Shown piece after piece: positions 877 through 27,831 of a stretch of DNA of 64,000 bases (position 1 is the stretch's first letter; each line of letters begins with the position of its first letter). The stretch spans positions 21,949 to 85,948 of the forward strand of contig CAZBLD010000007.1 in NCBI GenBank assembly GCA_964492875.1, written 5' to 3'. The notes beneath the pieces were generated by a model. The model searched no databases. It saw only the letters and a program-made list of their open reading frames with translations, and was not told the origin of the DNA. Source of the DNA: an uncultured Planctomycetaceae bacterium. Lineage in GTDB: Bacteria; Planctomycetota; Phycisphaerae; Sedimentisphaerales; UBA12454. A program made the position numbers and the translations under genes.

Positions 877-1599
877 TCAGTTTCGCAGGTCGATTATACT
901 CGCGTTTTTTACATAGCTTCTTATGACAAATTCTGCCAGGTTTACCCATAGTTTTGCCTTGTCTAACACGTCTCCGTCGCTTGTAGCGACGATTTGCTCC
1001 GATTGAATAAGCTCGGCATCAGGGTTATTGAGTAGTTTTACTTGTGTGGGGGGTGTGGGAGTTTTTGTCGCTGTCGATTCTATAATACCCTTGAGTCTTC
1101 CGCTGTTTGAGACAGGTTTGTCTAAAAGCCAGCAGGCGTTTTTTACCTTCAATTCGGTCAGAGCGTCGTTAATCAGTTCTATTGCAGGTATTGTCTCATC
1201 GACCTTTCTGTACGTCCCATGCATACCTGCCAGGTCTCTGACACAGCCGTCTCTGCCGATAAAGAGGAATCCTCCGCTCATTGCTGACTCGATGGTTATC
1301 AGGACGTTATATCCGTCGATAAGAATATCCCGGCCGGCAAGGTCGCCCGGCTGTAGTTGTCGAATCAGTCGTCCTGCAAGTTGCGTATCCGAGCAGCTGC
1401 TTCTCATAACTGCAAGTCTTTGTCTTTCGGTAAGTTCGAATTTGTCGCCGACTAATTTGAGGGCAGCGTTTTGAGGATATTCTTTTGTCAAAAGCATCGA
1501 GTAATCAGCCACAGCCTGCCGCAGAGCGGGGATATTTTCCCGGCAGAACAGGACACTATCCTGCGGATGAGCGCCTCTGTGTTTTCTTTTGTCCGGCAT
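877..1599 (-). CDS. DUF434-like conserved hypothetical protein
   Basis: The N-terminal RGAHPQDSVLF...LLTKEYP...LKLVGDKFELTERQR pattern resembles DUF434-family proteins (from memory). ATG at 1599 (MPDKRKHRG) is preferred over the longer track ORF. Divergent from murE. Confidence 0.5.
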   Translation of the reverse strand: MPDKRKHRGAHPQDSVLFCRENIPALRQAVADYSMLLTKEYPQNAALKLVGDKFELTERQRLAVMRSSCSDTQLAGRLIRQLQPGDLAGRDILIDGYNVLITIESAMSGGFLFIGRDGCVRDLAGMHGTYRKVDETIPAIELINDALTELKVKNACWLLDKPVSNSGRLKGIIESTATKTPTPPTQVKLLNNPDAELIQSEQIVATSDGDVLDKAKLWVNLAEFVIRSYVKNASIIDLRN

Positions 1600-1663
1600 A
1601 ACTTGTATTATATCATTTTTTACTATTGATATTGAATAAAATCGTTTGTTAAAATAGGCCCCT

Positions 1664-3100
1664 ATGACATTGGAGCAGTTATTGAAGCTGATGGATAGGC
1701 CCTTGCTTGAGCGGCCGCGCGTATGTGCCGACTCTCGCAAGCTTCGGCAGGGCGATATCTTTGTAGCGGTAAAAGGTACGCGTATGGACGGCCATGACTT
1801 TATCGGCCAGGCAGTTGTAACAGGCGCCAGATACGTTGTTTCGCAAAAACCGGTTACTGTTGCGTCAGCCGAAGTTATACAAGTTGACGATACAGCCGAA
1901 GCGCTTGGCCTGCTCTCTCAGGCATATTTTGACCAGCCCAACAGCAGGCTTGTTAATCTTGCTGTTACCGGCACAAACGGCAAGACGACGACGACTTATC
2001 TGGTTCGTTCGGTAATTGCCGATGCCGGCAAAAAATGCGGCCTGATAGGAACTGTGGTGATTGACTTTGGCAGCGGTGCAGACGACATCGAAGCTTCGAT
2101 GACGACTCCGGACGCGTTTGAGCTTGCGTCCATTTCAGACAAGATGGTACAAGCAGGCGACCAGTTCCTTGTTATGGAGGCCAGCAGTCATGCGATTGAG
2201 CAGAACCGTCTTGCGGGGATAAATTTCAAGGCCGCTGCTTTTACGAATCTTACAGGCGAACATCTGGATTATCACAAAACGATGGATGCGTATCTGGCCG
2301 CCAAGCTGAAGCTCTTTGAGAAGCTTTCACCTGATGCAACGGCAGTGATAAATATCGATGACCCTGTTTGGGAAAAAGTCGCTGCTGTAACAAAAGCTAA
2401 TAAGCTCTTTTACTCACTCGAAAGACAGGCAGACATAACGGCAGATATCATCTCGATGGATATTAGTGGTACGGTATTTGATTTGAATTTCAGAGGCCGG
2501 ATTATTCGGATAGAAACACCTCTTATAGGCAGACATAATATGAGCAATCATCTCGCTGCAGCGGGTCTGACGATTGCCTGTGGTTTTGACCTTAAGACAG
2601 TTGCAGAAGGTTTGAGTAAGCTCGGTAAGGTGCCCGGCAGACTTCAGAAAGTGCCTTTTTCAGGTGATTTTACGGTAATTGTGGATTATGCCCATACGGA
2701 CGATGCGTTAAAAAATGTCCTTTCAACCTTAAAACCTCTTTGTAAAAATCGCCTGACGCTGGTTTTCGGCTGTGGCGGCGACAGGGACAAAACCAAACGT
2801 CCCCGGATGGCACAGGTTGCCGAACAGTTTGCCGACAATATTTTTGTTACCAGCGATAATCCCAGAACGGAAAGACCCGCCGCCATAATAGAGGATATTC
2901 TCCAGGGTTTTTCAAACCCTTCTGCCGGTAACATAACTGTTCAGCCCGACAGGAAGCTGGCGATTGAGGCAGCGGTCAAAAATGCAAAGGCGGGCGATAT
3001 TGTTCTTATCGCTGGCAAGGGTCACGAAAATTATCAGATTATCGGCACGGAAAAGCTTCACTTCAGCGATATGGAGACCGCCGCAGAAATTTTGCGATGA
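1664..3100 (+). CDS. murE: UDP-N-acetylmuramoyl-L-alanyl-D-glutamate--2,6-diaminopimelate ligase
   Basis: Mur ligase P-loop GTNGKTTT, DYAHTDDAL and a C-terminal DNPR motif. Position upstream of murF-mraY. Confidence 0.93.
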   Translation: MTLEQLLKLMDRPLLERPRVCADSRKLRQGDIFVAVKGTRMDGHDFIGQAVVTGARYVVSQKPVTVASAEVIQVDDTAEALGLLSQAYFDQPNSRLVNLAVTGTNGKTTTTYLVRSVIADAGKKCGLIGTVVIDFGSGADDIEASMTTPDAFELASISDKMVQAGDQFLVMEASSHAIEQNRLAGINFKAAAFTNLTGEHLDYHKTMDAYLAAKLKLFEKLSPDATAVINIDDPVWEKVAAVTKANKLFYSLERQADITADIISMDISGTVFDLNFRGRIIRIETPLIGRHNMSNHLAAAGLTIACGFDLKTVAEGLSKLGKVPGRLQKVPFSGDFTVIVDYAHTDDALKNVLSTLKPLCKNRLTLVFGCGGDRDKTKRPRMAQVAEQFADNIFVTSDNPRTERPAAIIEDILQGFSNPSAGNITVQPDRKLAIEAAVKNAKAGDIVLIAGKGHENYQIIGTEKLHFSDMETAAEILR

Positions 3101-3219
3101 ATCCCGCACCTTCTAAATATTCAGTGTATCACGTATATCTTTTGAAGAGTCGTAAGGATGATAGCTTGTATATTGGATATACCAACGGGAAAATTGAACA
3201 GAAAGAAGGTGCGGGATGA
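3097..3219 (+). pseudogene. 40-codon mini-ORF, relic of the N-terminus of a GIY-YIG (COG2827-like) nuclease
   Basis: The translation is MNPAPSKYSVYHVYLLKSRKDDSLYIGYTNGKIEQKEGAG, with VYLL and LYIGYT matching the GIY and YIG motifs. Its ATG (3097) overlaps the murE TGA (3098-3100) and its TGA (3217-3219) overlaps the murF ATG (3216). Confidence 0.5.
3102..3216. repeat. Perfect 13-bp inverted repeat bracketing the mini-ORF
   Basis: TCCCGCACCTTCT (3102-3114) is the exact reverse complement of AGAAGGTGCGGGA (3204-3216). The right arm covers the murF ribosome-binding region. Confidence 0.85.
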
Positions 3220-4643
3220 AGCCTTTAAGCATAAGGAAACTCGCTGAAGTTATAAAAGCTCAAACCGTCTCCGGCAGCACAGAAATAGTAAGCAGTGTAA
3301 GTATAGACTCTCGTATAGTTCGCCAAGGTAGCGTATTTTTTGCGGTTAAGGGGGCAAATCACGACGGCCACGATTTTGTCAATCAGGCCTTTGAAAACGG
3401 CGCAGCCTGTGCGGTTGTGCAGAAGAAAATTGCTGTTACGACCGATTCGCCGCGGTGCGACCGCCTCGCAACAGGCAAGCTTGTCCTGCTTGTCAGCGAT
3501 ACGATAAAGGCTCTTGGCGAACTGGCAAAGTATGTGCGAAGTATCTCAGCCTGGAAGGTTATCGCAGTTACCGGCTCGGTGGGCAAGACTACGACAAAGG
3601 ATATGCTTCATCATGTTTTAAGCAGTAAGTTTAGATGTTTTGCCGCCCAGAAAAGCTACAATAACAATATCGGCGTGCCTTTGACGGTTTTCGATGCTCC
3701 GGATGATTGTGAATTTATTATAGCAGAGCTCGGCAGCAATCATCCCGGCGAGATTGAATATCTTTCCCGTATAATTGCTCCTGACATAGCTTTGATAACC
3801 ACGATATGCCCCGCACATCTGGAGGGTTTTGGCTCGATTGAAGGTATAATAAAGGAAAAGGTTTCCATCACGGCAGGTCTGAAGCAGGATGGAAAACTTT
3901 TTATCAACGGCGATAAAAAAGAGCTTGTTGATTATTGCAAAGAGAGTCGTTTGGATTTTACCACTTTCGGCACAGCGAAAACCTGCGACATACAGGTAAA
4001 GGATATTGAGTTTTTTGGCGATAAAAGTAAGTTTGTTATTGATGACGTTTTGGTGGAGCTTCCGCTTGCCGGCAGAGCTAACGTGGAGAATGCGGCAGCG
4101 GTCTGGGCGATGTGTAAATATCTTGGCATTCCAGCGGCTCAGCTTGCCCGCTTGATTGCTGACATAAAACCTGTCGGTATGAGGCTGGAGATTATCGAGT
4201 GCCGTCAGGCATCCCTTAGCGGACTTGGTTCGGTAACGGTTATTAACGACTGTTACAATGCAAATCCCGGCTCGATGGAAAATGCCCTTCAGACCCTTTC
4301 TCTGCTGGCGGAGCAGAAGAAGAAAAGACCTGTTTTTATTTTTGGCCGGATGGGTGAACTTGGCGCCCAAAGCGAAAGGCTGCACGCCGAGCTGGGCCAA
4401 AGAATTGCTCATTACAAAATCCCGCTTGTTCTGACGACGAAAGGCGATAGTGCCGTGGCTGCCCAAATGGCGGATAAAAGCGCTGATTTTCATATCTGTG
4501 TGAGGATTTTTGAAAATGTGCGCGAGCTTACCGCTAACCTGCACAAATTTATTGAACCTGACGATATAATATTAGTCAAGGCTTCTCGCAGTGAAAGCTT
4601 TGAAATAATTGTGGATAAACTGAAAGGACTTTTTACCAGATAG
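3216..4643 (+). CDS. murF: UDP-N-acetylmuramoyl-tripeptide--D-alanyl-D-alanine ligase
   Basis: Mur ligase P-loop GSVGKTTTKD, NDCYNANP motif, synteny murE-murF-mraY. Confidence 0.9.
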   Translation: MKPLSIRKLAEVIKAQTVSGSTEIVSSVSIDSRIVRQGSVFFAVKGANHDGHDFVNQAFENGAACAVVQKKIAVTTDSPRCDRLATGKLVLLVSDTIKALGELAKYVRSISAWKVIAVTGSVGKTTTKDMLHHVLSSKFRCFAAQKSYNNNIGVPLTVFDAPDDCEFIIAELGSNHPGEIEYLSRIIAPDIALITTICPAHLEGFGSIEGIIKEKVSITAGLKQDGKLFINGDKKELVDYCKESRLDFTTFGTAKTCDIQVKDIEFFGDKSKFVIDDVLVELPLAGRANVENAAAVWAMCKYLGIPAAQLARLIADIKPVGMRLEIIECRQASLSGLGSVTVINDCYNANPGSMENALQTLSLLAEQKKKRPVFIFGRMGELGAQSERLHAELGQRIAHYKIPLVLTTKGDSAVAAQMADKSADFHICVRIFENVRELTANLHKFIEPDDIILVKASRSESFEIIVDKLKGLFTR

Positions 4644-13844: not shown

Positions 13845-15593
13845 TTATTCAAATTGAATATCGTTTAAGACAAGCTGGACGGAATTTTGGCCGTAGAAGT
13901 TGTCTATTTGCGGCTCAAAAGCGATACTGAAAAATTCATTTTCCAAAAGCTTTTTTTCCAGATGAGCCATATTAAAGCCGATACATCGTGCATTTGCGCC
14001 GCTGTCGCAGACGGCTAATTGCAGATGTTCGCCGCCCTGGCCTACTCTTCTCGGCGAGGCAATCAATCTTATGCCTCTTGCTGCGAAAGTCGGTGAAGGA
14101 TTGCCTCTTCCGAACGGGCCGAGCATCGCCAGCGATTTTATAAGAGGCACGCTCAAATCCGAAAGTCGGCAGACCGCGTCGATTTCGAGTCTATTGACGA
14201 ATTCGTCGGCGTTCCAGTTTTCAGCGGCATAGTTTTCGAAGGCTGCTGCGAAGCTGCTTATTTTATCGACATCGATTGTCAGTCCTGCCGCCATAGTATG
14301 TCCGCCGAATGAAATTAGTTCGTTGCTGCAGGCGGTAATAGCTTCGAGGATGTCGAATCCTTCGATTGAGCGTGCCGAGCCTTGGGCTTTGTCGTTTGCA
14401 ATGTTGAACAGGATGGCGGGTTTGTAGTATTTATCGACGAGTCTTGATGCGACTATGCCGATTACGCCGGTATGCCAGTCGCTGCTTGCAAGGACGATTG
14501 TCTTCTTGTCGGCTTGGTCGAGGCCGGCGCTGCTTATCATATCGCAGGCATGTTTGTATATTTTCTTTTCGAGCAGTTGTCGTTGTTTGTTCTGCTGTTT
14601 AAGGTATTCTGCAATTCGGATTGCCCTGATATCATTATCGCACGTTAGCAGCTCGACGGCCAGTCTGGCGTGTCCCATTCTGCCGGCTGCGTTGAGCATC
14701 GGCGCAAGGCAGAAGCCTATATGGAAGCTGTCGATTGTCTGGGTTGTGAGATTTGCGGCATTGACTAATGCCTTCATTCCCGGCAGGTTGGACTCGGCGA
14801 AGGCCCGCAGGCCGAAGCTGCTGATGATTCTGTTTTCGCCGCGCATATCGATTACGTCTGCGATTGTGCCCATCGCGGCGAAAATCGTGGCGTTAATCAG
14901 GAATTGCCTGAGATGTTGCGGCGTAGTGCCGCTGCCTTTGAAGCGGTTGATAACAGCCCATGCAAGCTTAAAGGCCACAGTAGAACCGGCACTTAATTGT
15001 GCAGGATAGTTTTCATCAAGGTTCGGATGCACAATCGCAATCGCCTGCGGCAATGAGCCGTCCGGAGATAATCTATGATGGTCTGTGATAATCAGGTCGA
15101 TATTATTAGCTTTGGCAGCCAGTGCCGATTCAAAGGCTGTTATGCCGCAATCGACGCTGATAATCAGTTTTGCGCCTGACTGAGCGATTTGCTCAACCGC
15201 CTCGATATTCAGGCCGTAACCTTCATCTATTCTGTGCGGGATGTAATAATCTACGTCAGCCGCCAGCAACTTAAAAAGTCCCAGCAGAATTGTAACAGCA
15301 GTTATTCCGTCAACGTCATAATCGCCGTAGATGGTGATTTTTTGTTTGTCTTTTATTGCTTTTTCAATTCGCTCGATAGCCGTGCCGATGCCGGGCATCA
15401 ATTCAGGTTCGACAAGTTCATTGAGTTTGGGGTTGAGGAAGTTTTTCGCTTCATCGGGATTTTTGACGCCGCGGTTTATAAGCACCTGTGCAAGCAGGGG
15501 CGGTATTTTCAGTTCGTTCGCCAGTTGCCCCGCCAAACTGTCAGCGGGTAAAATGTGCCATTGTTTCTTTTGCATCCTTGCCGCCAGACGCAT
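13845..15593 (-). CDS. recJ: Single-stranded-DNA-specific exonuclease RecJ
   Basis: DHH motifs (YGDYDVDGIT, DCGI, ITDHH) and the DHHA1 block GGHTMAAGL. Confidence 0.9.
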   Translation of the reverse strand: MRLAARMQKKQWHILPADSLAGQLANELKIPPLLAQVLINRGVKNPDEAKNFLNPKLNELVEPELMPGIGTAIERIEKAIKDKQKITIYGDYDVDGITAVTILLGLFKLLAADVDYYIPHRIDEGYGLNIEAVEQIAQSGAKLIISVDCGITAFESALAAKANNIDLIITDHHRLSPDGSLPQAIAIVHPNLDENYPAQLSAGSTVAFKLAWAVINRFKGSGTTPQHLRQFLINATIFAAMGTIADVIDMRGENRIISSFGLRAFAESNLPGMKALVNAANLTTQTIDSFHIGFCLAPMLNAAGRMGHARLAVELLTCDNDIRAIRIAEYLKQQNKQRQLLEKKIYKHACDMISSAGLDQADKKTIVLASSDWHTGVIGIVASRLVDKYYKPAILFNIANDKAQGSARSIEGFDILEAITACSNELISFGGHTMAAGLTIDVDKISSFAAAFENYAAENWNADEFVNRLEIDAVCRLSDLSVPLIKSLAMLGPFGRGNPSPTFAARGIRLIASPRRVGQGGEHLQLAVCDSGANARCIGFNMAHLEKKLLENEFFSIAFEPQIDNFYGQNSVQLVLNDIQFE

Positions 15594-15755: not shown

Positions 15756-16832
15756 TTACTTGGCTGTTGTATTTGGTGTCGGCACTGCTGGTGCTGCCGG
15801 TGCTGTGGCTGGTTGTGGTACATAGTGCAGCATAATATCATTGTTGCCTGTGCCGCCTTTATAGGTCAGCGTATAATTATAGTTATTTCCACCAAAATTC
15901 AGAACCACACCAGTGCCTTCCGGTGCAGGATTGCCGTTGACCGTATCGAAAGTGCCGTTAACGGGACTGCTGCCCTGATTCTCGATAAGAAGAATATCAG
16001 CCTTTGGCGGTTCGCCGATGGCACTGACAATCAGCCTGGCTGTAACATCTGCGTTGGCTAAGTCAATGGAAATACCGTCCGAAACCCGAATCGGGCTTAC
16101 GCCTGTTGGACCAATCTTGAATTCAAGGGTACCTTTGCAGCCAATGCTGCCATTGCTTGCGACACAGAGTCTTTTAAGGTTAATATTGGCGGCACTGCCT
16201 GCTATGGTAAATGTTCCTTCGGTTGGCCCTCTGCCTCCGATTCCCGCTATATACAGGCCTGCATTGTCGTTTGTAGGATTATACGTAATGGTCCCGCCGC
16301 TGATGGTATAAAAGCCTTTGCCCTCATTGGGGTTTTTCTCGCTGGTTCCGTAGCGTCCTACTACAAGATTATCAGACAGATTTACCGTTCCTCCTGTCTG
16401 GTTTACGCGCCCGTAAGGGCCGCCGGTTGTAGAGCCGCCGCAGCCGACGCGGAATTCACCTATGCCGAGGATTCCGCCGGGTGCGATTTCCAGTCTTGGT
16501 GCGTTTGACTCTTCGGACCCGCCGGCTATACTGAGTTTGCACAGGTAATTTCCTGCGTTGCTGTCAAGTGTGCACACCGTTTTAGCTCTGATGATTTTTA
16601 TTTCATCTTTACTTATGCTTGGCCCCGGCGGAAGATGGACTGGCGGGCTATTCCAGTAGGCTTCTTTCCATGGGCCTGTCCCTGGGGTACATGCAGGCCG
16701 GTTCGCATCCGTTGGCAGGTTGGGGTCTGGTGCGGGACAGCCGTACCAGTTGCCGATAGTAACCGAAAATCCATTCCCAGCCGTGAAGATGGTTATTATG
16801 GCAATTACAATTAGCAGCATTTTGAGTCTCAT
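15756..16832 (-). CDS. Secreted Gly/Thr/Asn-rich beta-strand-repeat protein, function unknown
   Basis: Signal peptide MRLKMLLIVIAIITIFTA. Repeated GGT(V/I)-type beta-helix-like segments. Pro/Ala/Thr-rich C-terminus. Confidence 0.55.
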   Translation of the reverse strand: MRLKMLLIVIAIITIFTAGNGFSVTIGNWYGCPAPDPNLPTDANRPACTPGTGPWKEAYWNSPPVHLPPGPSISKDEIKIIRAKTVCTLDSNAGNYLCKLSIAGGSEESNAPRLEIAPGGILGIGEFRVGCGGSTTGGPYGRVNQTGGTVNLSDNLVVGRYGTSEKNPNEGKGFYTISGGTITYNPTNDNAGLYIAGIGGRGPTEGTFTIAGSAANINLKRLCVASNGSIGCKGTLEFKIGPTGVSPIRVSDGISIDLANADVTARLIVSAIGEPPKADILLIENQGSSPVNGTFDTVNGNPAPEGTGVVLNFGGNNYNYTLTYKGGTGNNDIMLHYVPQPATAPAAPAVPTPNTTAK

Positions 16833-17047: not shown

Positions 17048-17632
17048 TTATTCAAAATTAAGCGCTGCGAACCTCCCTCTGTACTTCTTTGCCGCTTCAT
17101 CGTATGCCCTTGCTGCCTCTTCCTCGCTGTCGAAATAGCCTAAATGTTTTGGTTTTAAGTCGGTATGGATATACGCACGCCATTTCCCGCGTTTTTCATC
17201 CCTGCAGACTCCTCTGTATTTTGACCCGCTTGGCCTTCCTCTTTTTGTGCAGTTTAGCGCGTTTTGTCTATGGTCAGCGAATTGCAGATTAGCTTTTCTG
17301 TTATCAAGGCCGTTGCGGTTTTTATGGTCAACGATAGTTCCCGCCGTTGCCTGCATTATTTCCCTGTGCATATATATAATCTTCCATTTCCCGTCTTCCA
17401 GCAGCATCCGCCACGCATAACAGGTATTTTTGCATTCTTTAAGCAGCCACTCGCACCGGCAGAGTTGCGCATAATCTTCAGGGTCAACTATTGCGTACTG
17501 TCCGCCGACAAGTCTGATTTTACGAAACGCAAATCCATATTGTTTCCGCCGGTACCAAAGCAGTATCGCCGCGCCGATGGTTTCTAACCAATTCGGAACA
17601 GCAATAGGAATATGAAGATGATGTATTTTCAT
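17048..17632 (-). CDS. HNH endonuclease fused to an AP2 DNA-binding domain
   Basis: HNH_3-like IVDHKNRNGLDNRKANLQFADHRQN, followed by the AP2 block SKYRGVCRDEKRGKWRAYI...LGYFDSEEEAARAYDEAAKKYRG. Confidence 0.8.
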   Translation of the reverse strand: MKIHHLHIPIAVPNWLETIGAAILLWYRRKQYGFAFRKIRLVGGQYAIVDPEDYAQLCRCEWLLKECKNTCYAWRMLLEDGKWKIIYMHREIMQATAGTIVDHKNRNGLDNRKANLQFADHRQNALNCTKRGRPSGSKYRGVCRDEKRGKWRAYIHTDLKPKHLGYFDSEEEAARAYDEAAKKYRGRFAALNFE

Positions 17633-17951: not shown

Positions 17952-18015
17952 TTGAACTTTTGGTAATTGGTATTTAGGATTTGTTTAGAATTTAGGATTT
18001 AGTGCTTAGGATTTT
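17952..18015 (+). repeat. TTGAA...TTTAGGATTTAG low-complexity element, copy 2
   Basis: Aligns by eye with 17702-17757. Confidence 0.7.
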
Positions 18016-18062
18016 CTTCTCTCTACTCTCGATTTTCGATTATCTCGCCCTTGGCGCGGTTT

Positions 18063-18184
18063 AGCCCCGCCTGCCCCGCACATATTTAATATTCTTATTC
18101 TACTCATTTTTATACTTATTGAATGAATAGGTGCGGGGTCGATTTTCTGCCCTTGCAGGGGCAAGGGCGGGGATAGGTGCGGGG
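18063..18184. repeat. Cluster of GC-rich CCCCGCAC / GGTGCGGGG motifs around an AT-rich core
   Basis: CCCCGCAC at 18074-18081. GGTGCGGGG at 18130-18138 and 18176-18184. Palindrome CCCTTGCAGGGGCAAGGG at about 18149-18166. Confidence 0.7.
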
Positions 18185-18242
18185 TTCCGGTCTGTCTTTT
18201 GCCATTTACCGCAACACCTCATAGTATCAATATATAAAATTC

Positions 18243-19337
18243 TTAATCTATATCTGCGTTAACAAGTTTTTCCGGCAAACCAAGATGTTCTTTAATCTCT
18301 TTCTGTCTCAGACCGTCTACAAAATCACCTATTTTACCAAAGTCAAGTTGCCACATTTCTCGTACACCTGTACTGTACTTGTCGGCAAAAAACCCCTGTA
18401 CTGTCGGGTACTCGATATGTATATCATCGTGGATTGAACGGAGTAAGTAGCTTCCAATTGTCTGCATTTTGCTTCCGGTAGGTGCAAGAATTATACGATG
18501 AGTACCTGAAAATTTCCAATATAAACTAGTAAGAAGTTCATAAGTTTCATTATAGTAAAGGGTGCTAGTTACTTTGATGGGATTGTTATCATCTTCGATA
18601 GTCCATTCTCGGCGCAAAAACTGATGAACATAGGCTGTAGCCTCTTCTCGCCATTTTAATTCTCCTCGTGGTGGACGGCCATTGATAAGTATGAAACGTG
18701 ATGGCTTGATAACATTAACTAAAGCCTGGCATAAAGCTTCATTGAAAGAGTCAAAGGCTATTAGCAATGTTGCCTGATTTTGCATTCGAATACTTGAGAG
18801 TCTGGAAACATGCAGCACATCGTAAACACCGGTATGTATGAAAGATGTAGGTAAATGTTGCTCTTCTTTTGATTTTGCTGTCTCAAACTGGGCTTGGCTT
18901 GGCGCGTATTCACAAGCTTCAGCATACACTATACGTAATGGCAAATTCAATTCGCGTACTACGTCAAGGATAATCATAATTGCCAGTCTTGACATGCCGG
19001 ATATATCAAGGCATACCGCCTTGGCTTGAGAATTAATCAGAATATCCTTAAAACAAATATCAAAGTCAAAAGGTAAATGCAAATTGTATTCCACAGGCAC
19101 AACCTTGCAACCTTTCTTATTTAGTAAAGACATAATCTCTTCAAATCTATTTTCTGGTTTATAGGGCAAGTAGTTCAGAAGTACCGCAATATTGTTGGTT
19201 GAGCTGGAAAATTCGAGAATTTCAGAAAACTTGCATGCGCGTTCCTCAAATCCTCCTGCTGCCACAAATAATTCATCATTATGAAGCACAAGTTTATCGA
19301 TAGATGTGAGTTTAGGTATGATCATGGCTACTTTCAT
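18243..19337 (-). CDS. Hypothetical protein, third gene of the MTase/kinase-ATPase operon, with possible Rossmann/CARF-like motifs
   Basis: Long AT-rich ORF whose start (ATG 19337 or 19325, TTG 19340) overlaps the stop of the upstream gene (19312). Motifs AAGGFEERA, LDISGMSRL and APTGSKMQ. No family recognised. Confidence 0.7.
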   Translation of the reverse strand: MKVAMIIPKLTSIDKLVLHNDELFVAAGGFEERACKFSEILEFSSSTNNIAVLLNYLPYKPENRFEEIMSLLNKKGCKVVPVEYNLHLPFDFDICFKDILINSQAKAVCLDISGMSRLAIMIILDVVRELNLPLRIVYAEACEYAPSQAQFETAKSKEEQHLPTSFIHTGVYDVLHVSRLSSIRMQNQATLLIAFDSFNEALCQALVNVIKPSRFILINGRPPRGELKWREEATAYVHQFLRREWTIEDDNNPIKVTSTLYYNETYELLTSLYWKFSGTHRIILAPTGSKMQTIGSYLLRSIHDDIHIEYPTVQGFFADKYSTGVREMWQLDFGKIGDFVDGLRQKEIKEHLGLPEKLVNADID

Positions 19338-21840
19338 CAAACAATCTCATTTGTTTAGTGTTAAACCGCTCTCTATCTTTTTTCCACTTTTGGGCAAAAT
19401 CTGCTGGGTTTAAAAGTAAATCCCTAAAATCTACTGCTTTCATAAAAATGCTATCAATTTTGGAAAATGTCAATGTACAAAACGGAATAAGTAATCGCCG
19501 TAAATATAGTCTGGGAATTATAGCCCCTCTAATACTTTTTCCTCTGTCATCCCTCAGGAACACTCCATAACGTACAAGATCTTCATATATTTCCCTACAG
19601 ACACCTTCCAAGGAAAACTTATCTACTATTTCTATTCGAAAAGCCTGTTTAGGTTCATTCTGTCGATCTTTTCTGCCGCTATTCAGTTTTCGTAAATCAT
19701 ATAAACTAACTTCCTTAAAAGCTTCAGCAATCTTAACCAAATGTTCACCCCATGAAACTATATGGCGAGGAAGGGGAGTTTTACCATCTCTTGCTGTTCT
19801 GGCACAGGCTTTAAGAAAATGCAGAAATTCCCCTCCTGCACGCCTGAATTCCTTGTTTTGTATATCTGGTTGTATTGGAAGATTCAAAGGTTGTTTATCT
19901 GGAATTTGTTCCAAGAGATTCTGAGCAAGTTTAACCATTGATCTTGTGTCTCCAGACCACATGCTCACAAAAACTTCTCGACCATAATAAAGAACCTGAG
20001 GTTTTGGTTTTTGTATAGGTTGCAAGTCATCATTCTCCGGCCCTACCTCTTTCCGAATTCCTCTTGCAAGTTCTGCCCAGGATTTATCAAATCTGCCAAG
20101 CACCTCAATGAGATTTTTGCCTTGAAACTTGTCTTCTCTTGCGAGACGACGACAAAACACATCATCAAGAAATGTTTCGCGTTTTTCGTCTGGCAAATCG
20201 ATTGTTACAGAACCTAAATCTGTAAGTTCAAAGTCGTGAGGCTCATCGAGGACCTTTTTAGTATAATCTTCGCGATATAAAGTTGAAGGTGATTCTGTGG
20301 AAATTTTGAAGAAAAAACAATCTGATCTTTGAAAAATAACCGAATTGAGAATTTTCTGAAGTGATTTGCCAACCTTGGGAAGAGAATAGTCATCAAGAAA
20401 AAAATATAATGGTCTATCGCCTATCCAAGGTACTATTTGCTGCAATTTTGGAACAAAACGTTTAAGCCAATCATTTTGCGCCATTTCCGAAAGACAAGAG
20501 ATGGGCTCTTTTGCATTTCGTACTCTGTCTTTAGCAGTCTCTACTAACGAGGCTGCAACCTGCATTTCAAGCCTGGGGCCTGGATATAAAGTCTTAGGAT
20601 CAATTTTCGTGATAATCAAATTAAATAACTGACGGTTTGATTCATCAAGTACAGTTTGTTGTCCATCCGCACCTTTTTCTCTGGCAGTTGATGCAATCCG
20701 TATAATCTCTGACAACAGCGAAAGATGAAAAAACTGAATTATACGCATAGCAAGGTTTTTATCTGGCGACTTCTCTTGGTCAAACAGAAACGCATCAGCA
20801 ATATCGTTCATATTAAGATATATGCCAACCAACTCTCCTGCCGCACCATCATCTACAGGACCAACCTCAAGAGTAAGAAGCTTTGAAAGACGTCTGAATA
20901 CCATTGTTTTGCCACAACCTCTTGTTCCAGTCAAGACCGTGATATTTCGACTGACGATATCTTCGTAGCCGGGAAAACTTGAAACAAAAAGTTCTTTCCA
21001 TTCTTTCCATCTATTCCCTAATTGTTCGCCTACCAAATAGTCACCAAATCTGGAATGACCCATTTGTGTAATTTGTGGCATGCTTGTTCGTTGACGTATA
21101 CGAATCAATTCCCCTACTATATTTTCAACGACATTTTTTTCATCCCCTCTTTCCAATGGCGATTGCTCTCTGAGACTCTTTATGGCAGATCCGCCGCAAA
21201 TTTCATCATAAAAAAATCTATCACCTTGCGTTAATTGTTCTCGAGTAATTGACTGAAGCATCAATGTGGTTATCAGGCCAATTTGCTCTATATCTTTTTT
21301 AGGTTGTAATATAGCCCCAGTATCACCCATCCCAAAATCTGTTATCATAACCTCGTATGCACGAGGACCTCCCATCTCAGGTTTTCTCAGAATAATATTT
21401 CCCGGATGTAAGTCTCCATGCTGTAAGTTCTTTTTTTGCAGACAATCTCGACGAAAAAATAATAAGTTTTCCAATATGTGTTGAACGTCGCTGATGGTTA
21501 ACTTGCGATTTATAACATGTTCTTTAAGTGTTTGGCCTTCGATGAAATCAAAGACCATCACAGCATAATCTTTATACCAAAAAAGTCCATGAAATCTTAC
21601 GGTGTTTGGTTGCTGTTCAAGTTGATGCGCTTTGAGAGCTTCTTGTTCCCAACCATGTTTTAATTTGTTTTGAGATATAAATTTTAAAGCTCGCTCACGC
21701 CCGTATTGATTTTTAGCTTTAAAAACATGCGCTCTTTTTCCACTTCCAATATAACTTATTATCTCGTATTCGTATTCTTTGTCCTTGTTAACTGTATTAC
21801 CTACTAAATCTTTTAATTGGTCTGGTAGAGAAAGAGTCAT
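19312..21840 (-). CDS. Fusion protein: Ser/Thr-type protein kinase core (aa about 24-200) plus P-loop NTPase (aa about 295-520) plus uncharacterised C-terminal region
   Basis: Kinase: G-loop IGSGKRAHVF, ALK (K53), HGDLHPGNIIL (D143), ITDFG (168-170). NTPase: Walker A GTRGCGKT (305-312), Walker B-like LYFFLDD (478-484). Confidence 0.85.
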   Translation of the reverse strand: MTLSLPDQLKDLVGNTVNKDKEYEYEIISYIGSGKRAHVFKAKNQYGRERALKFISQNKLKHGWEQEALKAHQLEQQPNTVRFHGLFWYKDYAVMVFDFIEGQTLKEHVINRKLTISDVQHILENLLFFRRDCLQKKNLQHGDLHPGNIILRKPEMGGPRAYEVMITDFGMGDTGAILQPKKDIEQIGLITTLMLQSITREQLTQGDRFFYDEICGGSAIKSLREQSPLERGDEKNVVENIVGELIRIRQRTSMPQITQMGHSRFGDYLVGEQLGNRWKEWKELFVSSFPGYEDIVSRNITVLTGTRGCGKTMVFRRLSKLLTLEVGPVDDGAAGELVGIYLNMNDIADAFLFDQEKSPDKNLAMRIIQFFHLSLLSEIIRIASTAREKGADGQQTVLDESNRQLFNLIITKIDPKTLYPGPRLEMQVAASLVETAKDRVRNAKEPISCLSEMAQNDWLKRFVPKLQQIVPWIGDRPLYFFLDDYSLPKVGKSLQKILNSVIFQRSDCFFFKISTESPSTLYREDYTKKVLDEPHDFELTDLGSVTIDLPDEKRETFLDDVFCRRLAREDKFQGKNLIEVLGRFDKSWAELARGIRKEVGPENDDLQPIQKPKPQVLYYGREVFVSMWSGDTRSMVKLAQNLLEQIPDKQPLNLPIQPDIQNKEFRRAGGEFLHFLKACARTARDGKTPLPRHIVSWGEHLVKIAEAFKEVSLYDLRKLNSGRKDRQNEPKQAFRIEIVDKFSLEGVCREIYEDLVRYGVFLRDDRGKSIRGAIIPRLYLRRLLIPFCTLTFSKIDSIFMKAVDFRDLLLNPADFAQKWKKDRERFNTKQMRLFDESSHDHT

Positions 21841-21844
21841 GACA

Positions 21845-22957
21845 TTAACTCTTCTTTCGTAGCACTATAATAGTTTCTTCACGAGTTGAATGGCAGTTGA
21901 CTCGTGCGCGGCGAATGTCAGGAATAGCATTTTTGCATATAGCAGTGGGTTTTAAATAACAATCTTTGCGTGAAGTAATTCTCAATATTTCTTCCGGTAA
22001 ACGATGATACTTACCATTTCGACGTACTGCTCCCAACACAAGAATACACACACCATTCCGCACTAAAAGCTTTGACCATATATCCATCAATGCTTCCATC
22101 ATATTTAGAAATTGTGTCTTGTGTGGCGAAAGCACAGGTTCCAATATTGTGTGATCCTTAATTCCTAAGAACCATAGTCTCAAACGATTATCACGAGCAT
22201 AAGAAAGCGAATTCATATATGGCGGACTTGTTATAATAGCTGAAACCTTCTGACAAACCAACTTTGAGTCTGGCTTCATTGCGTCCGACTGTACAACATT
22301 CCTAATCAATTGCCGATCCACCTCAGACGTTCTTTTGTAAGCACGGCGTACTTTAGCAAGCAATCGTGGATACACCGCTCTATAAGCATATAGTTCAGGG
22401 TATTTTGTACGTGGATAAAGCTTATCTTTCAAATATGGAACTGTATGGGAGGATGGATATGACAAAAAACCTGGTCTCCAATGATGAAGTATTCCGAGCA
22501 GACAGCTGAGCAAAAAATATTGACGGTGACGTAGCATAACATTTCTAATTGCAAGAGTATCCCGAAGAGTCTCCGGTTGGAAAAAATTGCGTACCCACTC
22601 TGGAATTTTTCTGAGATCAATCGTTTTACGTTCTTTAGTTGCTTCTTGCCAACATTCATTGAGTCTATTCTCGGCATCTTTAAAATTTTTAGGAGGATTC
22701 ATTTTGGCTTTTGAAAGCACATAAGCATAAGGACTGAGATCTCCTGCAAACACGTGTCTCTTGGTAAGCCATCCTTCTAATGCTATCGTTCCTGCTCCCG
22801 AGAAGGGATCGTATATGGTATCCCCCGGCTCAGTAAACTGTGTGATTAAACTTCTGGCCATTGAGGATTTCATCCTACCAATGTATGGAGACAGTTGGTG
22901 CCAGCTACATTCTGAATTAAGAGTACCTTTTCTCCAATCAATCCGTATTTTATCCAT
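21845..22957 (-). CDS. DNA methyltransferase (N6-adenine or N4-cytosine type)
   Basis: SAM-binding DPFSGAGT (aa 50-57) and catalytic TSPPY (aa 243-247). Its stop lies 4 nt from the next gene's ATG. Confidence 0.85.
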   Translation of the reverse strand: MDKIRIDWRKGTLNSECSWHQLSPYIGRMKSSMARSLITQFTEPGDTIYDPFSGAGTIALEGWLTKRHVFAGDLSPYAYVLSKAKMNPPKNFKDAENRLNECWQEATKERKTIDLRKIPEWVRNFFQPETLRDTLAIRNVMLRHRQYFLLSCLLGILHHWRPGFLSYPSSHTVPYLKDKLYPRTKYPELYAYRAVYPRLLAKVRRAYKRTSEVDRQLIRNVVQSDAMKPDSKLVCQKVSAIITSPPYMNSLSYARDNRLRLWFLGIKDHTILEPVLSPHKTQFLNMMEALMDIWSKLLVRNGVCILVLGAVRRNGKYHRLPEEILRITSRKDCYLKPTAICKNAIPDIRRARVNCHSTREETIIVLRKKS

Positions 22958-23004: not shown

Positions 23005-23032
23005 ATTATACTATTCGTAAGTTAACAGGCAA
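23005..23032 (-). promoter_or_regulatory. Candidate sigma70-type promoter of the three-gene operon
   Basis: On the minus strand, TTGCCT (23032-23027), 16-nt spacer, TATAAT (23010-23005), about 45 nt upstream of the ATG at 22957. Confidence 0.35.
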
Positions 23033-25494: not shown

Positions 25495-27831
25495 ATGGTA
25501 TTTTCTTCAGAAAACAGTCTGTTTGACATTTCGGGAAACGAGAAAATTCCCTGCGGGAAAATTGTAACTGTTGCTCCGGATACGGGTGTTGATAATGTCT
25601 TTGATTATCTTCTGCCCGACCGATTAGGGGAAGTTCGACCCGGCCGACGCCTTGAAGCGCCTTTCGGCAGGGCAAATAAGCTTATAACAGGATTCTGTAT
25701 AGAAATAAAAAATGCCGAAGCAGATGAAATACAAAAAAGAAAATTGAAATTTGTGAAAAAGGTGCTCGATACTGAACCACTGCTCGACAGCAGACAGCTT
25801 GAGTTCGGCAAATGGATAAGCGATTTCTATGTTTGTCCATTGGGGCAGGTTTTAAGTGCGATGGTTCCTGCTGCCGTCAAAAAAGGTGCGGGTGTGAAAA
25901 AGCTCAAACACGTTTTTCTTGCGGCTGATGAAAAAAACCTCGGTGAACCGCGCGGCAAAAAACAAAAGCAGATTATTCAAGCTCTGAGGGAGACAGGCGC
26001 ATTTGACGCCAAATCAGCAGTTGAGTTGAAGGGCCTTCTTGGGCGGTTAAGCATTGGCGGTTCACCTTTGAACAAACTTGTTCAGGCAGGCATCGTCAAA
26101 TTAACAAGCCAAACTTTCCTGCGAGAACTGCCGGTTGTTCCGAAAGGATTATTATTAAAAACAGATGCCGTGATATTGAATAACGACCAGCAGAAGGTCC
26201 TGGCCGAGATTGAAAAGAGAGTAAATTCCAACAGCTTTTCCGTTGTGCTTTTGCACGGCGTAACTGACAGCGGCAAGACCGAAGTGTATATCAGGGCAAT
26301 TGAAAAGGCTGTCGAAAAGGGCAAAAGCGCAATAGTACTTCTGCCCGAAATTACACTGACCGCTCAGACTGTTCAGCGTTTCGGCAGCAGATTCAAAAAT
26401 GTCGCTGTTATGCATTCTCAGCTTACCGCCTCGCAGCGAAATGCACAGTGGCAGAAGATAAAAACCACATCGCCGATAGTTGTTATCGGTGCCAGAAGCG
26501 CGATTTTTGCGCCGGTTTCAAATCCCGGAATAATTGTAGTAGATGAAGAACACGAGCCGAGCTACAAACAGGATACGGTCCCCAGATATAACGGCAGAGA
26601 TGCTGCAATAAAACTTGCACAAATGGCAAATGCCGTCTGCGTTCTGGGCAGCGCAACTCCTTCGCTTGAAACGCTTTACAATTGCAGGACAAAAAAACAT
26701 TTTACACGCCTGACTTTGCCGAATCGCGTGATGAACCTTCCAAGACCGGAAATGAAAATCATCGACATGGCACAGCAGCATTTCGAAGGTCGCGGCATAA
26801 ATCTCATCAGTTCCGAACTTCTTGGGGCACTGGTGCAAACCCTGCAGAAAAAGGAACAGGCGATTCTACTCCTGAATCGCAGAGGCTACAGTAATTTTAT
26901 TTATTGTCCGAGCTGCAGATATTCGCTCAAGTGTAAAAACTGTGATGTAACTCTGACTTTTCACAAGTCCGAAAAACATCAGAAGACGACGGACCTGACG
27001 GGCAGACTCAAAGGCGGTTTTGCAATGTGCCATTATTGTCTGGCGCAGACACTTGTGTCTAAGAATTGTCCGCTGTGCGGCAAGGCGGTTACGATGATTG
27101 GTCTTGGCTCGCAGCGACTCGAAGACGAACTTGAAGCGAAACTTCCCGATACACGTGTAGTCAGGGTTGACAGCGACTCGATGCAGCACCACGATTATTA
27201 CCGCTTGCTATCGGATTTCGATGCGGGCAGAATCGACATTCTTGCCGGCACACAGATACTTGCAAAGGGACTGCATTTTCCAAATGTTACGCTTGTCGGA
27301 ATAATAAGCGCAGATACATCGCTGCAGCTTCCAGATTTCCGTTCCAATGAAAGAACCTATCAGCTTATCTGTCAGGTCGCAGGCAGAGCCGGCAGAAGCA
27401 GCAAAGGCGGAAAAGTTTACATTCAGACATTTTTGTCGAACCAGCCGGCCATTAAATTTGCGGTTAATGACGATTTTGAAGGTTTTATAAAAGAAGAGCT
27501 AAAACACCGACAGGCCTGTCTGCTGCCGCCTTTCGGCAGAGTGGCTCTGGTACGAATGAGAGATACAAAATATGACCGGTTGATGGGAGCTGCCGATGTT
27601 ATTGCACAGCAGTTAAACAATATTATTTCTTCGCTCAAGCTGGATATAAAACTTACCGGCCCGATGCCAGCTGTTATCGGGCGTATTCAGCGTTTTTACA
27701 GGATGCAGATTATATTGCGGACCGGCAATCCCAATAACTTTGCGGAGCTTTTCAGGACATTTCGCCGACTCAAAATAGCGGTTTCTACCGTTGAAGTGCA
27801 GGTTGATGTCGACCCCGTTAATTTATTATAA
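25495..27831 (+). CDS. priA: Primosomal protein N' (replication restart helicase PriA)
   Basis: Walker A GVTDSGKTEVY, DEEH box, Cys-rich zinc-binding insert (CPSC...CKNC...CHYC...CPLC), C-terminal PriA domain. Confidence 0.9.
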   Translation: MVFSSENSLFDISGNEKIPCGKIVTVAPDTGVDNVFDYLLPDRLGEVRPGRRLEAPFGRANKLITGFCIEIKNAEADEIQKRKLKFVKKVLDTEPLLDSRQLEFGKWISDFYVCPLGQVLSAMVPAAVKKGAGVKKLKHVFLAADEKNLGEPRGKKQKQIIQALRETGAFDAKSAVELKGLLGRLSIGGSPLNKLVQAGIVKLTSQTFLRELPVVPKGLLLKTDAVILNNDQQKVLAEIEKRVNSNSFSVVLLHGVTDSGKTEVYIRAIEKAVEKGKSAIVLLPEITLTAQTVQRFGSRFKNVAVMHSQLTASQRNAQWQKIKTTSPIVVIGARSAIFAPVSNPGIIVVDEEHEPSYKQDTVPRYNGRDAAIKLAQMANAVCVLGSATPSLETLYNCRTKKHFTRLTLPNRVMNLPRPEMKIIDMAQQHFEGRGINLISSELLGALVQTLQKKEQAILLLNRRGYSNFIYCPSCRYSLKCKNCDVTLTFHKSEKHQKTTDLTGRLKGGFAMCHYCLAQTLVSKNCPLCGKAVTMIGLGSQRLEDELEAKLPDTRVVRVDSDSMQHHDYYRLLSDFDAGRIDILAGTQILAKGLHFPNVTLVGIISADTSLQLPDFRSNERTYQLICQVAGRAGRSSKGGKVYIQTFLSNQPAIKFAVNDDFEGFIKEELKHRQACLLPPFGRVALVRMRDTKYDRLMGAADVIAQQLNNIISSLKLDIKLTGPMPAVIGRIQRFYRMQIILRTGNPNNFAELFRTFRRLKIAVSTVEVQVDVDPVNLL

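Follow-up and report, generated by a model that had tools for sequence, protein, structure and literature searches.

A probable tandem CARF protein encoded with a kinase/AAA+ ATPase and a DNA methyltransferase in an uncultured Planctomycetaceae bacterium

The three-gene operon

The stretch of DNA analyzed here, referred to as the window, comprises 64,000 nucleotides of contig CAZBLD010000007.1 (assembly GCA_964492875.1) from an uncultured Planctomycetaceae bacterium. It contains three packed minus-strand genes that encode, in this order, a DNA methyltransferase, a protein kinase-like domain fused to an AAA+ ATPase (hereafter the kinase/ATPase) and, last, a protein of 365 amino acids (aa) that is the subject of this report (Table 1). 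This last product is very probably a stand-alone tandem CARF protein, with two divergent CARF-type Rossmann domains in one chain, and we refer to it as CARF-CARF and to the three genes as the triad. CARF domains are the receivers of cyclic oligoadenylate (cOA) alarm signals in type III CRISPR immunity.

The open reading frame (ORF) of CARF-CARF belongs to the minus strand, as the plus strand across 18243-19340 carries stop codons throughout. Besides the TTG start, two ATG codons may serve as alternative starts, one at 19337 (364 aa) and one at 19325, the latter fitting the 360-aa homologues. Depending on the start chosen, the gene is overlapped by 14-29 nt by the kinase/ATPase ORF, which ends at 19312; the gap between the methyltransferase gene and the kinase/ATPase gene is 4 nt. 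The site resembling a promoter ahead of the methyltransferase gene is a candidate operon promoter, by consensus match.

Table 1. Features of the operon and of its products (positions in the window).
Feature	Position	Strand	Basis or remark
DNA methyltransferase gene, 370 aa, first of operon	21845..22957	minus	Pfam, PADLOC
Kinase/AAA+ ATPase gene, 842 aa	19312..21840	minus	Pfam, PADLOC
CARF-CARF gene	18243..19340	minus	ORF and translation; 365 aa with TTG start
Promoter-like site TTGCCT, 16 nt, TATAAT	23005..23032	minus	Consensus scan only; 48 nt upstream of methyltransferase start
Probable N-terminal CARF domain, residues 16-156	18870..19292	minus	Strand/helix alternation in AF2 model; HFX_2341_N/Csa3_N matches in homologues
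Probable C-terminal CARF domain, residues 190-352	18282..18770	minus	Separate AF2 model and Foldseek
Interdomain linker, residues 157-189	18771..18869	minus	pLDDT 66-83, low confidence; conserved LSS motif
GFEER loop after strand 1, N-domain	19239..19253	minus	G29, F30, E31, R33 conserved 99-100%
DISGMSR loop after strand 4, N-domain	18987..19007	minus	Fits CARF signature [DN]x[ST]xxx[RK]
FDSFN loop after strand 1, C-domain	18741..18755	minus	S/T197 in 100%, polar alcohol residue typical of CARF
PTGSKMQ loop after strand 4, C-domain	18462..18482	minus	G288, S289, K290, Q292 in 100%
Walker A TGTRGCGKT, invariant arginine inside P-loop	20905-20931	minus	Kinase/ATPase
Kinase catalytic loop HGDLHPGN	21397-21420	minus	RIO/Bud32/APH-like, not HRDLKPxN

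Profile and fold evidence for two CARF domains

In PADLOC-DB, CARF-CARF had 11 matches, all of them to 'CARF6--CARF_CARF_CARF(_TM)' profiles, and the best (E = 1.6e-15) was collinear, aligning residues 14-333 with profile positions 9-301 of 308. We read the profile names as a 'CARF_' prefix followed by the architecture, so that 'CARF_CARF' would stand for two CARF domains; the source of the profiles is presumably Makarova et al. 2020. The CARF6 family and its kinase/ATPase partner are thus already catalogued computationally, and the window protein adds one member. We found no experimental study of the family or of the triad in the searchable full-text literature, which did not cover the 2020 CARF classification. 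By contrast with PADLOC-DB, scans of CARF-CARF against Pfam and NCBIfam gave no match, and a preliminary description of the gene, made from the sequence, was therefore right about these two collections in assigning it to no recognisable family, but not about PADLOC-DB. It had also missed that the family is catalogued and that the DNA methyltransferase is a third conserved gene of the operon.

Pfam matches were obtained for homologues of the protein. Among 61 homologues scanned, 23 matched HFX_2341_N in the N-terminal half (best E = 4.4e-5, 24.4 bits against a gathering score of 30) and one matched Csa3_N in the same half. HFX_2341 is a Csa3-like haloarchaeal regulator (PMC11434293).

The full-length AlphaFold2 (AF2) model (pLDDT 88.8, pTM 0.90) shows one alpha/beta half at residues 16-156 and another at 190-352, with a linker of lower confidence between them, and each half follows the pattern b1-a1-b2-a2-b3-a3-b4-a4-b5-b6-a. 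When the C-terminal half was modelled alone (pLDDT 82.5) and searched with Foldseek against the Protein Data Bank (PDB), CARF domains were the top 12 matches and 12 of the top 15, with probabilities of 0.97-1.00; they included Cam1 (8t64), Csa3 (2wte, ranked third), Can2 (8bao/7bdv), TtCsm6 and Card1 (6xl1). The Cam1 match had an E value of 4e-4 and a target-normalised TM-score of 0.58-0.62. CARF proteins also appear in the list for the full-length model, namely TtCsm6 (probability 1.00, root-mean-square deviation (rmsd) 3.9 Å over 133 columns), Cad1 and VC1899, and the best query-normalised TM-score among the full-length matches listed, 0.37, belongs to the tandem-CARF Csm6 (9w3u) of Actinomyces procaprae. 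Neither the Pfam scan nor the AF2 model revealed an effector domain or a DNA-binding domain, such as a winged helix-turn-helix (wHTH), in the 365-aa protein.

Conservation of the putative ligand loops

The preliminary description had pointed to four strings, FVAAGGFEERA, VCLDISGMSRL, LLIAFDSFNE and IILAPTGSKMQ, as resembling CARF motifs. All four are present, and in the AF2 model each motif comes directly behind the first or the fourth strand of one half. In CARF domains, strand 1 ends in a polar residue, usually S/T, a conserved basic residue stands immediately after strand 4 within the signature [DN]x[ST]xxx[RK], and the ligand site lies at the strand-1 and strand-4 loops (PMC4012209). The same study already named the 'fusion of two CARF domains' as an architecture (PMC4012209). 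The N-terminal half carries this signature as D111-I-S113-G-M-S116-R117, with D/N in 80 of 80 orthologues, S/T in 79 and K/R in all 80. The C-terminal half has S/T197 at the end of strand 1 in every one of the 80. Together with the PADLOC CARF6 matches, the Pfam matches of homologues and the Foldseek results for the C-terminal half, the N-terminal signature bears out the proposed resemblance.

Conservation was assessed in a 61-sequence alignment and in an 80-species alignment, the 80 orthologues being 28-65% identical. In both, the invariant core of the family reads G29-F30-E31-x-R33, D111-x-S113-x-x-[ST]116-[KR]117, F195-x-[ST]197-x-[ND]199 and G288-S289-K290-x-Q292. Among the 80 orthologues, 28 positions are at least 95% conserved, and 11 of these fall inside the 25 residues of the four strand-1/strand-4 loops (hypergeometric p = 1.6e-7). 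Because the most conserved positions are concentrated in these loops, the four motifs are defining positions of the family and not chance strings. The two halves have diverged beyond sequence recognition of each other: hhalign gave a probability of 0.2% for their similarity, and no internal duplication is detectable from sequence.

Two further motifs were considered. The linker contains an LSS motif (L180 97% and S182 96% conserved) that is a candidate phospho-acceptor for the adjacent kinase. An HxDIHIEYP motif (H303, D305, H307, E309), invariant in the close set, was considered as a metal or catalytic site and rejected, as it is not conserved in the 80-species set, where H303 is found in 42, H307 in 46 and E309 in 45 of the 80.

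Distribution of the triad

CARF-CARF has 225 close homologues and, among 50%-identity cluster representatives, 1,045 relatives at E <= 1e-3, nearly all of them stand-alone proteins of ~350 aa. A survey of one genome per species yielded 80 loci, which span the Planctomycetota, Acidobacteriota, Nitrospirota, Desulfobacterota, Bacteroidota, Verrucomicrobiota, Gemmatimonadota, Alpha-, Beta- and Gammaproteobacteria, and Archaea, the archaeal carriers being Methanoperedens, Methanoregula, Natrinema and members of the Thermoplasmatota. Upstream sequence is available for 77 of the loci, and in every one of these the kinase/ATPase gene is directly upstream of the CARF-CARF gene. An overlap of the two genes, or a distance of no more than 15 nt between them, is seen in 73 of 77 other loci, a 4-nt overlap being commonest; with the overlap in the window, this supports the coupling to the kinase/ATPase that had been proposed for the gene. 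A methyltransferase is encoded in 64 of the 66 loci with enough upstream sequence, usually by the first gene. Beyond the triad and ThyX (11 of 80 loci, see below), no gene family occurs around more than 8 of the 80 loci, and the clusters that reach up to 8 are short antisense ORFs over the triad genes.

The context of the triad is mobile, patchy across phyla and low in GC. One copy lies on a plasmid of Bradyrhizobium quebecense, where it adjoins an annotated restriction endonuclease gene and is labelled 'hypothetical protein' in RefSeq; a tblastn search of phages found no phage copy. In five loci the triad adjoins DUF1156 genes and SNF2/PLD or SNF2/NOV_C genes, which are neighbours typical of defence islands. 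These include a DUF1156 protein of ~990 aa directly after the triad and SNF2-family helicases fused to NOV_C or PLD (L082:9026-11980 and 883-4296, L053:13926-16981, and L087).

In the window, the operon has a GC content of 0.38-0.39 (low-GC patch at 18001-22000) against ~0.45 in its flanks, and its surroundings are housekeeping genes, i.e., RecJ (13845-15593), PriA (25495-27831), a GH127 glycosidase and phospholipid enzymes. A low-GC patch between housekeeping genes would fit acquisition by horizontal transfer.

Just downstream of the operon, at 17048-17632 on the minus strand, lies a gene for a 194-aa protein with HNH_3 and AP2 domains that is homing-endonuclease-like (PADLOC HEase, 1.7e-4), and beyond it a minus-strand ORF of 358 aa (15756-16832) that has no Pfam or NCBIfam match. 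These two, and an upstream ORF of 88 aa, were considered as parts of the system and rejected, being without homologues in other triad loci; for the same reason the HNH_3/AP2 gene is probably a separate mobile element.

The kinase/ATPase and the methyltransferase

The 842-aa protein joins a Pfam Pkinase match (2.5e-14, residues 25-172; domain approximately 20-175) to an ORC-CDC6-like AAA+ match (2.9e-27, residues 283-583). It also matches the PADLOC profile 'CARF6--CARF_STK_AAA' (E = 7e-21), aligning with positions 125-691 of 1187. Across 62 orthologues the invariant elements are K53, E67, HGDLHxxN and DFG of the kinase part, and the Walker A motif TGxRGCGKT (including R307) and the Walker B DD of the ATPase part. 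With these catalytic motifs intact, the kinase/ATPase is apparently active. The first protein of the operon matches Pfam N6_N4_Mtase and UPF0020 and the PADLOC profile MTase_II (1.6e-21), with FSGAG at residue 52 and SPPY at residue 244.

Effector fusions and nucleotide-metabolism neighbours

Three rare fusions extend CARF-CARF at its C-terminus, to a TIR domain, to a calcineurin-like phosphoesterase (Metallophos) and to a HisKA-HATPase histidine kinase, and every fusion gene is directly downstream of a kinase/ATPase gene. These fusions fit the standard grammar of a CARF sensor followed by an effector. The fusion loci are L088:1105-2607, L089:264-2438 and L090:4154-6166 (with L091 and L092).

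A gene for the flavin-dependent thymidylate synthase ThyX is found next to the triad in 11 of the 80 loci, in three phyla and on the same strand in 10 of the 11; the assignment rests on Pfam Thy1 (E = 8e-50) and on the RHRx7S motif, which is intact in all 11. The loci are L014 (9122-10147), L016-L020, L026, L028, L030, L032 and L076, and in L014 and L016 the ThyX gene lies between the CARF-CARF and methyltransferase genes. ThyX also accompanies the triad on the B. quebecense plasmid (L093:10148-11071), and since this copy is plasmid-borne, the association there is not housekeeping synteny. The recurrence suggests that the triad is linked to dUMP/dTMP metabolism. In a Pyrinomonadaceae metagenome-assembled genome (L004:4833-11904), a dCTP deaminase gene lies directly upstream of the triad on the same strand, and the flanks also hold a DHFR gene and a ThyA gene (opposite strand). 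This locus is a second, independent tie of the triad to enzymes of pyrimidine deoxynucleotides.

Proposed function and alternative explanations

We lean, by a small measure, toward CARF-CARF being a ligand sensor of pseudo-dimeric build by which the kinase/ATPase is gated, within a defence module linked to methylation. The two halves probably pack as a pseudo-dimer, in which the strand-1 and strand-4 loops of both would form one asymmetric ligand pocket, and the conservation of these loops suggests that the ligand may be nucleotide-derived. The methyltransferase would mark the host DNA as self, and the AAA+ or C-terminal part of the 842-aa protein would engage DNA. CARF-CARF, made in stoichiometric amounts with the kinase/ATPase through translational coupling, would bind it and sense a nucleotide-derived small molecule, or a nucleic-acid end, that appears on infection. 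The output of the kinase/ATPase would then be released or restrained; this output would be the phosphorylation of proteins of the host or the invader, with arrest of growth or exclusion as the result. In this scheme we infer that the proteins form a complex, that a ligand is bound, what this ligand is and where it comes from, that the module serves defence and which way the regulation runs. The gating role, which the preliminary description had suggested for a sensor or an adaptor, is strengthened by the strict co-occurrence of the two genes, their translational coupling, the published family of kinase-AAA+-CARF fusions (see below) and the rare fusions to effector domains.

Several observations weigh against this interpretation. 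On the side of the CARF assignment, the Pfam matches of the homologues are below the gathering thresholds, and the Foldseek E values of the C-terminal half are modest (4e-4 to 2.5e-2). The Foldseek search with the full-length model is headed by generic proteins with two Rossmann domains (the KCC C-terminal domain, CobK and KaiC). In place of the usual S/T at the end of strand 1, the N-terminal half has GFExR, with invariant E31 and R33, and after strand 4 the C-terminal half has a shortened variant of the signature (T287-G-S289-K290, with K in 80 of 80 orthologues). On the side of the function, no conserved cyclase or other signal-making enzyme is found near the triad across the 80 loci, a scan of the window for tandem arrays as CRISPR context found none, and the three-gene operon encodes no nuclease or other obvious killing effector. 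In addition, the likeness of the kinase domain to solved kinases stops at the DFG motif and its HGDLHPGN loop is atypical; these two features leave the substrate class of the kinase uncertain, and the 'kinase' may be atypical in its substrate.

The assignment itself would fail if the protein were a generic double Rossmann-fold protein unrelated to CARF (USP-like, methyltransferase-like or CobK-like) and the CARF label a profile artefact. The head of the full-length Foldseek list favours this, as do the viral structure library, which gave only generic Rossmann and methyltransferase folds and no meaningful match, and a profile search of PDB sequences, which returned only noise (Octarellin, an anti-sigma antagonist). 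However, the KCC, CobK and KaiC matches have TM-scores of 0.17-0.25 and rmsd values above 15 Å, and this likeness was rejected as an artefact of domain arrangement after the C-terminal half had been searched alone and CARF domains had taken the top places. The Pfam matches of the N-terminal half are specifically to HFX_2341_N and Csa3_N, the PADLOC matches all belong to one CARF clade, and the CARF signature stands at the correct structural position, so that we regard this explanation as very improbable. If the CARF fold is accepted, the protein could be a ligand-independent adaptor, a degenerate Rossmann scaffold that assembles or targets the kinase/ATPase and the methyltransferase, for example a subunit for specificity or DNA state. 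A partnership that is strict and translationally coupled yet comes without a cyclase would suit an adaptor, as would the departure of the N-terminal half from the CARF strand-1 motif. Nevertheless, the conservation is focused on the canonical ligand loops instead of being spread over a broad surface, both halves keep the conserved basic residue after strand 4 that is a hallmark of nucleotide binding, and a wHTH-like domain that might contact DNA was not detected in the protein. We therefore consider an adaptor unlikely.

The same loops could instead belong to an enzyme, ring-nuclease-like or of phosphodiesterase type, that processes a nucleotide signal or a nucleic-acid end and so acts as an off-switch, or that makes the controlling species. 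For a site that only binds, the pocket loops hold a large number of strictly conserved polar residues (E31, R33, D111, S113, S/T197, S289, K290, Q292). The C-terminal half combines an S/T at the end of strand 1 with a K after strand 4, a pattern associated with ring-nuclease activity of CARF domains, and the fusion to Metallophos connects the family with phosphoester chemistry. Against this, no source of substrate is encoded nearby, the candidate metal motif HxDxHxE is not retained in the wider family, and the TIR and histidine-kinase fusions suit a sensor better; an enzymatic role is thus improbable in our judgment. Finally, CARF-CARF could be chiefly a substrate of the adjacent kinase and work as a phospho-switch, which would be compatible with a sensor role. 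The conserved LSS (L180 and S182, at least 96%) lies in a flexible linker of low model confidence, S/T residues are invariant at positions 113, 116, 197, 258, 259 and 289, and the catalytic residues of the kinase are invariant as well. This inference is purely positional, though, and most of the conserved S/T residues belong to the pocket loops and would there contact the ligand, which makes a role chiefly as substrate quite unlikely.

Returning to the ligand sensor, a more specific version of it is a speculative possibility that we consider doubtful. The triad may be a self-contained, methylation-linked immune signalling system with a CARF sensor outside cOA/CRISPR signalling, in which CARF-CARF would read a metabolite related to pyrimidine nucleotides or derived from the invader, or else a product of the atypical kinase-like domain, and would switch the kinase/AAA+ ATPase on unmethylated DNA. 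The idea of a pyrimidine-related metabolite is hinted at by the recurrent ThyX genes and by the dCTP deaminase and ThyA genes flanking one locus; that of a kinase product rests on the HGDLHPGN loop and on the lack of a recognisable C-lobe. If this version were true, it would mean a new class of CARF input and a new kind of defence, resembling restriction-modification but without a nuclease.

At least 80 species of Bacteria and Archaea keep a tandem CARF protein tied to a kinase/AAA+ ATPase and a methyltransferase, and no cyclase is evident. The identity of the ligand would reveal what CARF domains sense outside CRISPR, and would make clear as well how a kinase system that is linked to methylation and has no nuclease tells invaders apart or reacts to them. 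Cultured organisms that carry the triad, including Bradyrhizobium quebecense (plasmid pBq66S1MBc), Bradyrhizobium sp. Oc8 and Natrinema zhouii, make the family directly testable.

Comparison with known systems

In its parts list of a DNA methyltransferase, a Ser/Thr-type kinase and an ATPase of the ORC/Cdc6 clade, the operon is like BREX type 2 (Pgl) and MADS, and in PADLOC the kinase domain matches MAD6 (1.4e-17) and PglW (5.5e-5), with a similarity to PglX in the operon as well (1.4e-4). Membership in BREX type 2 was nevertheless rejected, as the NCBIfam PglW score is 24.6 bits against a cut-off of 990 and there is no PglZ, PglX-type methyltransferase or BrxC in the operon. MADS membership was likewise rejected: the antiphage_MADS6 match in NCBIfam scores 43.9 bits against a cut-off of 460 and covers the kinase N-lobe only, the other mad genes are missing and the operon consists of three genes. 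CARF-CARF, moreover, is without counterpart in either system. The SAVED proteins of CBASS, which are fused to an effector and associated with a CD-NTase, offer an analogy in their two CARF-like halves, but CARF-CARF matched no PADLOC SAVED or CBASS profile, has no effector domain and has no conserved cyclase nearby.

The ancillary CARF effectors of type III CRISPR-Cas are recognized by proximity to Cas10 or type III genes and by a fused effector, neither of which was seen for the window protein in the search for tandem arrays in the window, in the genes conserved around the 80 loci or in the domains of the protein itself. Csa3 and HFX_2341 (DUF6293), the nearest Pfam families to the N-terminal half, are dimerising proteins with a single CARF domain and a wHTH, whereas the window protein has a second CARF domain instead of the wHTH. 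Can1 and the Csm6 of A. procaprae are alike in having two divergent CARF domains per chain, and the composite asymmetric pocket is known from them; Can1's two CARF domains have few residues in common, as in the window protein. Unlike CARF-CARF, which lacks an effector domain, a cyclase and a CRISPR context, they carry nuclease or HEPN effectors and respond to cOA made by Cas10.

Makarova et al. (2014, PMC4012209) reported a small family of fusion proteins that combine CARF and wHTH domains with a Ser/Thr/Tyr kinase and with an AAA+ ATPase whose P-loop contains an arginine. The operon differs from these fusions in that its CARF domains form a separate tandem protein without a wHTH and in that it includes a methyltransferase gene, but like them it combines the kinase with an AAA+ ATPase that has an arginine inside Walker A, in association with CARF. 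With the CARF6 'CARF_CARF' family of PADLOC-DB v2 no difference is detectable, and the window protein matches it from end to end.

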